Part shown: in pieces, positions 51,997-52,304 of the stretch
Layout of the letters: every line of letters starts with the position of its first letter
Numbering within the stretch: position 1 is the stretch's first letter
Notes under the pieces: generated by a model
Database searches by the model: none
What the model was told of the DNA's origin: nothing
What the model saw: only the letters and a program-made list of their open reading frames with translations
Made by a program: the position numbers and the translations under genes
Assembly: GCA_002449785.1 (NCBI GenBank)
Contig: DJXP01000019.1
Coordinates: 7,287 to 71,286, forward strand
DNA: 64,000 nt
DNA from: Clostridiales bacterium UBA7001
GTDB taxonomy: Bacteria; Bacillota; Clostridia; TANB77; CAG-508
Direction: 5' to 3'

Positions 51997-52304
51997 GCCG
52001 CTGTAGCTCAGTTGGTAGAGCAACTGACTTGTGGAATAGATAAACTTATGTTTATTTTGAACTATTTTGCACCTTTACAAAGAAATTTGTAAAGTGGACA
52101 CCGCTAATTCGGGGAATGCTAAGTAGAAATATATGTTAATCCCGAGCTAAGAAGAAATTCTAAGTGTAGAGACTTTATACGGTGTACCTAAGGCATTAAT
52201 GCTATGGTAAAGAGAAAGTCCAGACTACAAACACGAATGTGGTAATGAAAATTATAGTAGTATGAATCAGTAGGTCGTCAGTTCAAGTCTGACTAGCGGC
52301 TCCA
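51997..52304 (+). tRNA. tRNA-Thr (anticodon UGU) interrupted by a 232 nt group I intron between anticodon-loop positions 36 and 37
   Basis: Exon 1 GCCGCTGTAGCTCAGTTGGTAGAGCAACTGACTTGT, exon 2 AATCAGTAGGTCGTCAGTTCAAGTCTGACTAGCGGCTCCA; joined they give a canonical Firmicute tRNA-Thr(UGU). Confidence 0.85.
52033..52264 (+). ncRNA. group I self-splicing intron (tRNA-type, about 232 nt)
   Basis: 5-prime exon ends in U, intron ends in G; P-like AATTCGGGGAAT (about 52104), Q-like AATCCCGAGC (about 52136), R-like GTCCAGACTACAAACACG (about 52218), S-like ATAGTAGTATG (about 52254); P7 pairing ACUAC/GUAGU. Confidence 0.8.

Follow-up and report, generated by a model that had tools for sequence, protein, structure and literature searches.

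Positions 51997-52304 of the 64,000-nucleotide stretch analysed here (the window; contig DJXP01000019.1 of Clostridiales bacterium UBA7001) very probably hold the third gene of a Lys-Glu-Thr tRNA operon, a functional gene for tRNA-Thr(UGU) that is interrupted by a group I intron of IC3 type without an open reading frame (ORF) and followed by a gene for an HNH protein that would be, or would recently have been, a homing endonuclease acting in trans. Since the window has a base composition of 24.9% G+C and encodes murA, spoIIR and a UDPGP-PGM fusion, it is chromosomal DNA of a low-GC member of the Clostridia with sporulation genes. All other copies of the locus that were seen come from metagenome assemblies of gut type.

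A tRNA-Thr(UGU) gene split behind its anticodon

By ARAGORN, the two exons joined in silico form a canonical tRNA-Thr(UGU) of 76 nt whose CCA is encoded, and the genomic DNA itself is called tRNA-Thr(tgt) i(37,232) when the program is run in intron mode. A preliminary description of this DNA, made from the sequence alone, had read the two halves as tRNA-Thr(UGU) with a 232-nt insert after position 36, preceded by U and ending in G, and both statements hold, with the insert at 52033-52264 between positions 36 and 37. No other splice boundary in the anticodon loop combines a 7-nt loop with U at position -1 and a terminal G. Default ARAGORN on the window does not report the split gene. The tRNA-Thr(UGU) gene at this locus is probably essential, and the Lys-Glu-Thr cluster to which it belongs is present at intron-plus and intron-minus loci alike.

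The insert is a group I intron with a complete core

The insert is a group I intron, the compact kind that the preliminary description had proposed. In a local scan of 501 nt the Rfam model Intron_gpI matches it significantly (42.1 bits, E = 1.8e-9) from model position 1 to 253 of 253. A covariance model trained only on tRNA-Leu(UAA) introns, 21 in number, matches over its full length at 52060-52265, its sole match in the window (135.1 bits, E ~5e-36, a score that is partly circular owing to the 23-nt core motif shared with the window, by which the training introns were picked).

A manual structure was counted on an alignment (A1) of 21 tRNA-Thr(UGU) 36/37 introns from Clostridia, Bacilli, Alphaproteobacteria and Gammaproteobacteria. 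Its 73 pairs in 14 helices are paired in 93.9% of cells, against 81.3% in shuffled alignments (none of 500 shuffles reached the observed value) and 32-43% when the 3' partners are slid by 1-3 columns. Compensatory changes are found in 40 of the 73 pairs across these orthologous introns, including 8 of 9 pairs in P2, 5 of 6 in P3, 5 of 7 in P6 and 5 of 8 in P8; P2, P3, P6, P8 and P9b are rich in covariation, and P4 and P7 are invariant. The P9 helices 12-14 covary as well (for example CUAC/GUAG to CCAC/GUGG), and in P1 the pairing GGGAUAG/CUAUCUU alternates with GGAAUAG/CUAUUUU (G-C for A-U) around an invariant guide UUGCA. The splice-site U·G is present in 21 of 21 orthologs, as is the terminal G (G52264), and the intron sequence is identical in all seven same-species metagenome contigs that span it.

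The resulting P1-P9 architecture is complete (Table 1), with a U·G wobble at the 5' splice site (U52032·G52069) and the terminal G. The minimum free energy (MFE) fold recovers P1 to P6 independently, including the P1a extension hairpin AUAAAC-UUAU-GUUUAT at 52040-52055. The preliminary description had named four core elements in the correct order, with P/Q forming P4 and R/S forming P7. All four elements exist, and P (52106-52117) and Q (52138-52147) are indeed the two P4 strands with J3/4. Its 'R' (CAGACTACAAACACG, 52221-52235) and 'S' (ATAGTAGTATG, 52254-52264), however, were misplaced: they are complementary but form the P9 pairing ACUAC/GUAGU and not P7, and the true sites are 52164-52175 and 52209-52221. 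True R does not vary among the 21 orthologs or among the 21 tRNA-Leu introns. The P7 5' strand pairs with AGUCC at 52217-52221 to give a P3/P7 pseudoknot, with a gap of only 5 nt (52175-52179) between it and the P3 3' strand. P7, G[A]GACU/AGUCC with a bulged A, is identical across these 42 related introns (21 tRNA-Thr and 21 tRNA-Leu) and would be consistent with a guanosine-binding site.

P2 is present, P5 is short, and P5abc and P7.1/P7.2 are absent. Because of this architecture and the homology to the tRNA-Leu introns, we would group the intron with the IC3-type bacterial tRNA introns, and its sequence indicates that it is almost certainly a functional self-splicing member of that class. 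Group II and protein-spliced (bulge-helix-bulge) introns were rejected: neither gave an Rfam match, and the insert carries a group I core.

Besides the circularity of the tRNA-Leu model, several results count against this assignment. The Rfam score lies below the gathering score of 50 bits for Intron_gpI, which is a database threshold and not a biological criterion; Intron_gpI was reported neither in the default Rfam scan at the gathering score nor in a permissive scan of the 64 kb; the MFE z-score is only -1.93; and of the two pairings expected with the exon ends, P1 forms in full and P10 would comprise only 2 bp (A52265-A52266 with U52068-U52067, AA/UU). The loss of the intron in whole-window scans is an effect of filter and threshold and not evidence against the intron, and the sub-threshold score is to be expected because the RF00028 seed lacks bacterial sequences; thresholds of 18-20 bits have been used (Williams 2020, bioRxiv 10.1101/2020.01.27.920355). 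A dead tRNA pseudogene, split by a degenerate insertion that no longer splices, would fit both the low Rfam score and the silence of default tRNA finders. We consider it extremely improbable: all elements of the catalytic core are intact and either invariant or covarying in the 21 orthologs, conservation of the exons is perfect, the strains share one and the same intron sequence, the locus is orthologous to the standard intron-less tRNA-Thr(UGU) of related Lys-Glu-Thr operons, and the low score has the explanation just given.

A free-standing HNH gene tied to tRNA introns

The ORF that starts 135 bp past the 3' splice site had been described as a free-standing HNH endonuclease gene beside the intron, a description with which Pfam and PHROGs agree. 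At the N terminus of the protein is a CxxC...CxxxC zinc ribbon, and behind it comes an HNH motif (C67, C70, DH88, N100, C105, C108, H109), whose Cys, His and Asn residues are invariant in 21 homologs. It scores 23.0 bits with PF01844 (HNH; cut-off 21.4) and 22.9 bits with HNH_3, below the cut-off of 24.8, and HNH families of PHROGs match it down to E = 8e-21; a PDB sequence search for a solved HNH relative gave no significant match (best E = 0.05). At least 1303 proteins belong to the family, and most of them are unannotated, hypothetical or labelled 'DUF2116 Zn-ribbon' by NCBI. Intact HNH genes have a ratio of nonsynonymous to synonymous substitution (dN/dS) of ~0.17, with dS saturated.

A terminator-like hairpin behind exon 2, unlisted by the terminator scan because its loop exceeds 8 nt, would end the tRNA operon and set the HNH gene apart. 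The -10-like box TAAAAT of a promoter-like site ends at 52398, immediately before the first ATG at 52399. In homologs the start falls where the window has its second ATG (52405; alignment A2 of the homologs has M3 as its invariant start), which in the window has no Shine-Dalgarno sequence before it, unlike in L041, L084 and L118 (L numbers denote loci), and an mRNA read from the second ATG may be leaderless or poorly translated in the window.

Homologs of 63-67% identity lie directly downstream of a tRNA-Thr intron, on the same strand, in six other species (L039, L041, L047, L083, L084 and L118). All nine contexts with upstream DNA, from three further homologs, have the order Lys-Glu-Thr(intron)-HNH. 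In a metagenome-assembled genome (MAG) of the Bacilli (L095) a 67%-identical ortholog lies inside a 659-nt tRNA-Thr intron, in the P5 loop, with an ORF that reads through P5', P4' and P6. More distant relatives (40-45% identical) occur inside 680-740-nt tRNA-Leu(UAA) introns, in sense or antisense, or beside short ones. The gene appears to behave as selfish homing-endonuclease genes do and to be tied to this lineage of introns. It resembles the intron-encoded HNH genes reported from tRNA-Asn of Patescibacteria and tRNA-Leu(UAA) of Bacteroidota (PMC13011429), which also belong to PF01844 and are tied to tRNA introns; unlike those, it lies outside both intron and tRNA, behind a terminator-like hairpin and with its own promoter-like site.

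Some further contexts of the family were noted. HNH homologs (E = 1e-19 to 1e-29) antisense to a ~680-700-nt tRNA-Leu(UAA) intron come from Gammaproteobacteria and Acidobacteriota MAGs (L066, L038, L065, L115, L034); the ORF is in sense in the Leu introns of L105, L035, L072 and L130, and free-standing beside a short Leu intron in L120, L123 and L049. Many short HNH-bearing metagenome contigs start 125-200 nt upstream of the gene, in the 3' part of the intron or in exon 2 (L006, L008, L010, L139, L140, L143, L144), and these ends fit assembly breaks at repeated sequence, be it the shared intron core or the tRNA exon.

Empty sites, decayed HNH genes and the case for homing

A metagenome scan for the ligated-exon sequence gave at least 120 loci, and the counts of this section hold for the loci listed. 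About 90 of these are low-GC and syntenic, in the order Lys-Glu-Thr(no intron)-SDR, and intron-less syntenic alleles, whose presence in relatives the preliminary description had suggested checking, are common in related organisms (~58 dereplicated clusters). After dereplication at 95% there are 12 intron-plus and 58 intron-minus clusters. The HNH gene is intact in 6 of the 12 and in 1 of the 58 (Fisher p = 4.5e-5), and any trace of it is found in 9 of the 12 and 8 of the 58 (p = 5.6e-5), with both 2x2 tests treating clusters as independent and ignoring phylogenetic relatedness, a point to be set against them. On a neighbour-joining tree of SDR, where 14 of the 55 tips are intron-plus, the intron state has to change 10 times (random mean 12.6), and the distribution of the intron is therefore very patchy.

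Intact, decayed and absent HNH genes are all found at one intergenic slot. At intron loci without an intact gene, what remains of the ORF is limited to 3' fragments, the deletions ending at no fewer than four distinct points, and the HNH gene of L036 has an in-frame internal deletion. In most relatives (L022, L064, L036, L150, L211 and others) the 3' end of the HNH gene (window 52750-52803) overlaps, in another frame, the start of the next gene (SDR/FabG-like), an overlap that probably explains why the 3' fragment survives deletion.

Together, the linkage and the enrichment of HNH genes at intron loci suggest homing in trans. The reading rests on the L095 ortholog, which is encoded within the intron at the same site and could spread only by cutting intron-less alleles nearby. 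We infer from this ortholog and from the enrichment that the target of the HNH protein would be the place where the intron is inserted, and the most economical reading is that the protein targets the anticodon region of tRNA-Thr(UGU) and so would mobilise the ORF-less intron in trans.

Several observations weigh against this reading. The conserved position of the HNH gene is equally compatible with plain vertical descent; the intron-less relatives nearest to the window species are only 82-83% identical over ~6 kb (82-85% for the closest intron-less loci); no within-species intron polymorphism was seen among the seven same-species contigs spanning the intron; HNH remnants occur at seven intron-less clusters; and L222 combines an intron-less tRNA-Thr with a full-length HNH gene. 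Relative to L233, L222 has a precise insertion of ~400 bp with identical flanks, in which the HNH gene uses the original ribosome-binding site (RBS) and ATGAAT start of SDR and supplies SDR with a new RBS and ATGAAT, making it a possible counter-example to an HNH target split by the intron.

These remnants and the L222 insertion, together with the constancy of the single intergenic slot, favour the main rival explanation, in which the HNH protein is an independent free-standing enzyme that targets its own empty site between tRNA-Thr and SDR, or lies in wait for some other stretch of the tRNA region, while the intron travels along as a linked passenger, co-converted at times, and is neither a partner of the enzyme nor its protected target. 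Homing of this 'intronless' kind is well established for free-standing endonucleases (PMC3984707). We nevertheless find this explanation rather doubtful here. The 67%-identical L095 ortholog sits in the same intron, and an enzyme so placed can spread only via cuts near the insertion site; intact HNH genes are ~30-fold enriched at intron-plus loci; the DNA 3' of the tRNA is poorly conserved between species, whereas the anticodon region is invariant and so a natural target; and L222, a contig of 2.4 kb at 1.9x coverage, may be an assembly chimera, joined across the shared 3' exon.

The missing polymorphism bears on another explanation, that of a relic which entered a Clostridia ancestor once and has been immobile since, with a neutral or host-recruited HNH gene and with losses accounting for the patchiness. 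The synteny Lys-Glu-Thr-[HNH]-SDR-...-LexA-like-VanW is kept in many species, HNH deletions are many and independent, and a dN/dS of ~0.17 could equally reflect a host function. As a general account we think it unlikely, for the same intron at the same site in Alphaproteobacteria, Gammaproteobacteria, Bacilli and Clostridia needs transfer between phyla at some point, for which the abundance of the family on viral contigs offers a possible vehicle, and the ~10 state changes on the SDR tree sit badly with precise loss of a tRNA intron, which is mechanistically demanding. For the window species itself, a purely vertical relic is possible.

A proposed model of splicing and of homing in trans

Reasoning from established group I chemistry, we propose that in the folded precursor exon UGU pairs with the guide GCA, so that U52032·G52069 forms the wobble pair of P1. 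The attack after U52032 would come from an external guanosine bound by P7; G52264, placed by P9, would then take over from this guanosine, and ligation of the exons would yield mature tRNA-Thr. The exon register would be kept mainly by the anticodon stem of the tRNA, in addition to the 2-bp P10; the anticodon stem aligns the exons in other tRNA introns (Zaug et al. 1993, cited in PMC3984707).

For mobility, the HNH protein is our candidate for the present or recent homing endonuclease of the intron, acting in trans. It would cut or nick intron-less tRNA-Thr(UGU) alleles near the insertion site, repair templated by the donor would carry over the endonuclease gene along with the intron and the 3' exon, and the carrier genome would be shielded by the intron, which would split the HNH target site. 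Splicing activity, the HNH cleavage site and present-day mobility are what we infer in this scheme.

The arrangement recalls the psbA intron of S-PM2 with F-CphI and the nrdB intron of T4 with mobE (its own I-TevIII being defunct), where an ORF-less or defective intron is likewise accompanied by a free-standing endonuclease gene adjoining the interrupted gene. Homing in trans was shown for mobE, an HNH-family gene, with the nrdB intron (PMC2790892), and collaborative or trans homing, including that of F-CphI with the psbA intron, is reviewed in PMC3984707. The phage cases concern protein-coding genes and their cleavage has been mapped, whereas ours concerns a chromosomal tRNA gene and is known from sequence; moreover, the motif of F-CphI is Endo VII and not HNH (PMC6083498). 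L095 is a natural counterpart of the proposed next step, in which the endonuclease gene enters the intron. A free-standing trans-acting HNH gene (the window, L039, L041 and others), the HNH gene in the P5 loop (L095), decayed genes and empty sites could then form a natural chromosomal series in the origin of a mobile intron, a reading that we put forward tentatively and would not quite back.

Distribution and relation to known tRNA introns

A scan of one genome per species for the core motif GTAGAGACT-N25-55-AAGNNAAAGTCCAGAC gave at least 119 loci in many phyla. Among the loci listed, ARAGORN places the motif most often in split genes for Leu(UAA), followed by Thr(UGU) (~20), with others for Tyr(GUA), Asn, Ser, Arg(CCU), Leu(CAA), Met/fMet and Phe. 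The same tRNA-Thr intron at the same site is found in ~20 species among the 119 genome matches listed; it is common in MAGs of gut Clostridia and Bacilli and occurs also in Proteobacteria. A plasmid BLAST search found the same intron at the same tRNA-Thr(UGU) site in the alphaproteobacterium Tritonibacter mobilis, and a phage BLAST search found a related intron in the tRNA-Leu(UAA) of a 735-kb uncultured phage (LR756501; L012 3001-3138); apart from these two, the phage and plasmid searches gave exon matches only.

Some intron-mode calls needed correction. By the rule of U(-1) and terminal G, L013 (Sphingomonas), called Thr(tgt) by ARAGORN, is really a tRNA-Lys(UUU) split at 35/36 and was excluded, and L011 (Tritonibacter) and L033 (Salipiger), called Ile(tat), are really tRNA-Thr(UGU) split at 36/37. 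The boundary ambiguity behind such mis-calls is described in PMC13011429.

In calling the intron unusual the preliminary description overstated its case, given ~20 species among the matches listed and surveys that already broaden the classes of split tRNA. The tFind catalogue raised the split bacterial tRNA classes from 4 to 21, with 5292 introns (Williams 2020), and a 2026 survey of 4934 complete genomes reported 333 tRNA introns in 18 phyla at nearly every anticodon-loop position (PMC13011429). The sole tRNA-Thr class discussed in the running text of these surveys is a divergent Thr(GGU) intron at 36/37 in Patescibacteria, of subgroup IA. Our literature search, which did not cover the class tables of the two catalogues, found no explicit report of a group I intron in tRNA-Thr(UGU). 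The novelty of the intron is modest: it belongs to a large, well-known kind of tRNA intron, as a representative that is new or at least undescribed.

The four classical classes of tRNA intron are all IC3 according to Williams (2020). Like the introns of cyanobacterial and plastid tRNA-Leu(UAA) (34/35), Agrobacterium tRNA-Arg(CCU) and Azoarcus tRNA-Ile(CAU) (36/37), the intron in the window occupies an anticodon-loop site, is of the ~200-250 nt size and lacks an ORF; it shares with the classical IC3 introns three exon nucleotides in P1, the presence of P2, the lack of P5abc and P7.1/7.2, and a near-identical core (GUAGAGACU ... AAAGUCCAGAC). Its 36/37 site is that of the Agrobacterium and Azoarcus introns, a position given for the Arg and Ile introns in PMC13011429. 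Unlike the classical introns it resides in tRNA-Thr(UGU) of low-GC gut Clostridia, has a three-way P9 domain with two hairpins, and belongs to a tRNA gene adjoined by a homing-endonuclease gene. With the introns catalogued in both surveys it shares the Intron_gpI match within a split tRNA called by ARAGORN and the rule of U(-1) and terminal G, and also the pitfalls of ambiguous boundaries and sub-threshold RF00028 scores. The two surveys counted endonuclease genes inside introns (12 of 333) and not free-standing ones beside them.

Related introns also split tRNA-Tyr(GUA), called at position 37, and tRNA-Asn(GUU), called at position 36 (ARAGORN calls), in many gut Clostridia MAGs (L014, L017, L027, L029, L044, L048, L063, L088, L089, L097, L099, L127, and also L031, L100, L114, L128), and the gut Clostridia clade may carry several split tRNA genes per genome. 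The core motif occurs, further, on at least 120 IMG/VR viral contigs (L265-L384). Among the matches listed, the viral split tRNAs are Leu(UAA) (44) and Arg(UCU) (12), then Phe, Asn, Thr, Lys and Tyr; some viral loci have apparent suppressor-type anticodons, and 39 have no tRNA call. As of 2014, all known phage group I introns were in protein-coding genes (PMC3984707).

Layout and variation of the locus

The features of the locus are collected in Table 1. In the window, two inserted genes, for a GtrII glucosyltransferase and an M15 peptidase (52821-55013), separate the HNH gene from SDR (55023). Relative to window positions 53054-53336, L002 has a ~280-bp deletion or replacement in the GtrII-like gene, whose product is 339 aa against 532 aa. 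The 26-nt spacer between tRNA-Lys and tRNA-Glu (window 51872-51895) is a hotspot of replacements and indels: strains L002, L003 and L007 differ from the window at 13-17 alignment positions there and almost nowhere else. Upstream, UDP-sugar pyrophosphorylase and phosphoglucomutase are fused in one ORF of 998 aa (48707-51703); the relative L141 has them as separate neighbouring genes, 413 and 572 aa long.

Compared with window positions 46399-58803, L004 is 10-30% divergent or non-homologous left of tRNA-Lys, up to ~51783, and near-identical for more than 6 kb rightward of tRNA-Lys/Glu, with no differences at 51896-53200 and ~0.6% thereafter. This boundary reflects either recombination at the tRNA cluster or a chimeric assembly; we did not use it as evidence of homing, as chimeric assembly across a conserved tRNA explains it equally well.

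Table 1. Features of the split tRNA-Thr(UGU) locus, in window coordinates
Feature	Position	Strand	Description	Basis
Sigma-70-like promoter match, presumed promoter	51727..51755	+	TTGACA-17-TAAGAT, upstream of the Lys-Glu-Thr cluster	Consensus scan only
tRNA-Lys(UUU)	51796..51871	+	Cluster gene 1	ARAGORN; Rfam tRNA 66.6 bits
tRNA-Glu(UUC)	51898..51972	+	Cluster gene 2	ARAGORN and Rfam tRNA
tRNA-Thr(UGU) exon 1	51997..52032	+	Positions 1-36, 3' end is the anticodon UGU; U52032 is -1	
P1	52030..52071	+	Exon UGU + intron GGAAUAG (52030-52039) / internal guide CUAUUUUGCA (52062-52071)	Manual pairing
Group I intron, IC3-type	52033..52264	+	232 nt, no ORF; G52264 is the terminal (omega) G	
P2	52073..52094	+	Hairpin, 9 bp, GAAA tetraloop	Covariation; in MFE fold
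P3 5' strand	52098..52103	+	ACACCG; partner CGGUGU 52180-52185	Covariation; agrees with Rfam alignment
P4-P5 domain	52106..52147	+	J3/4 AAU, P4 UCGGGG (52109-52114)/UCCCGA (52140-52145), short P5/P5a (52118-52136)	
P6	52146..52165	+	Hairpin GCU-A-AGAA GAAA UUCU-A-AGU, GAAA tetraloop	Covariation
True R	52164..52175	+	GTGTAGAGACTT: J6/7 + P7 5' strand G[A]GACU (52169-52174, A bulged)	Rfam alignment
P8	52186..52208	+	Hairpin ACC-U-A-A-GGCA UUAA UGCU-A-U-GGU	Covariation
True S	52209..52221	+	AAAGAGAAAGTCC: J8/7 AAAGAGAA + P7 3' strand AGUCC	Rfam alignment, covariation
P9 domain	52224..52264	+	Three-way; P9 ACUAC (52224-52228)/GUAGU (52257-52261)	Covariation
P9a and P9b	52232-52241; 52243-52254		CAC-GAAU-GUG; UAAU-GAAA-AUUA; then AUG to terminal G52264	
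tRNA-Thr(UGU) exon 2	52265..52304	+	Positions 37-76 with encoded CCA	ARAGORN
Terminator-like hairpin	52312..52349	+	9-bp stem AGGCUGGUA/UACUAGUCU, then U8	Read from sequence
Promoter-like site	52370..52398	+	TTGACC-17-TAAAAT, before the HNH ORF	Consensus scan
HNH homing-endonuclease-like gene	52399..52803	+	Free-standing, 134 aa (132 aa from 52405)	Pfam, PHROGs

Significance

Because default ARAGORN and the Rfam gathering score miss the split gene, genomes and MAGs of low-GC gut Clostridia will seem to lack tRNA-Thr(UGU), the decoder of the abundant codon ACA, and completeness scores based on tRNAs will be biased. The same annotation concern is raised for Patescibacteria in PMC13011429.

The free-standing endonuclease is the more interesting part of this locus and its useful lead. 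According to the same survey, tRNA introns rarely carry endonuclease genes and are hence seldom mobile. Here the genes of an endonuclease family of at least 1300 proteins lie immediately beyond the tRNA gene, which suggests that trans mobility has gone unnoticed. If the chromosomal series proposed above is real, many 'ORF-less, immobile' bacterial tRNA introns would be mobilised by neighbouring endonucleases that surveys do not count. Related genomes show free-standing, intron-encoded and decayed genes side by side with empty sites, and would offer a tractable system outside phages for the hypothesis that collaborative homing leads to a composite mobile intron.

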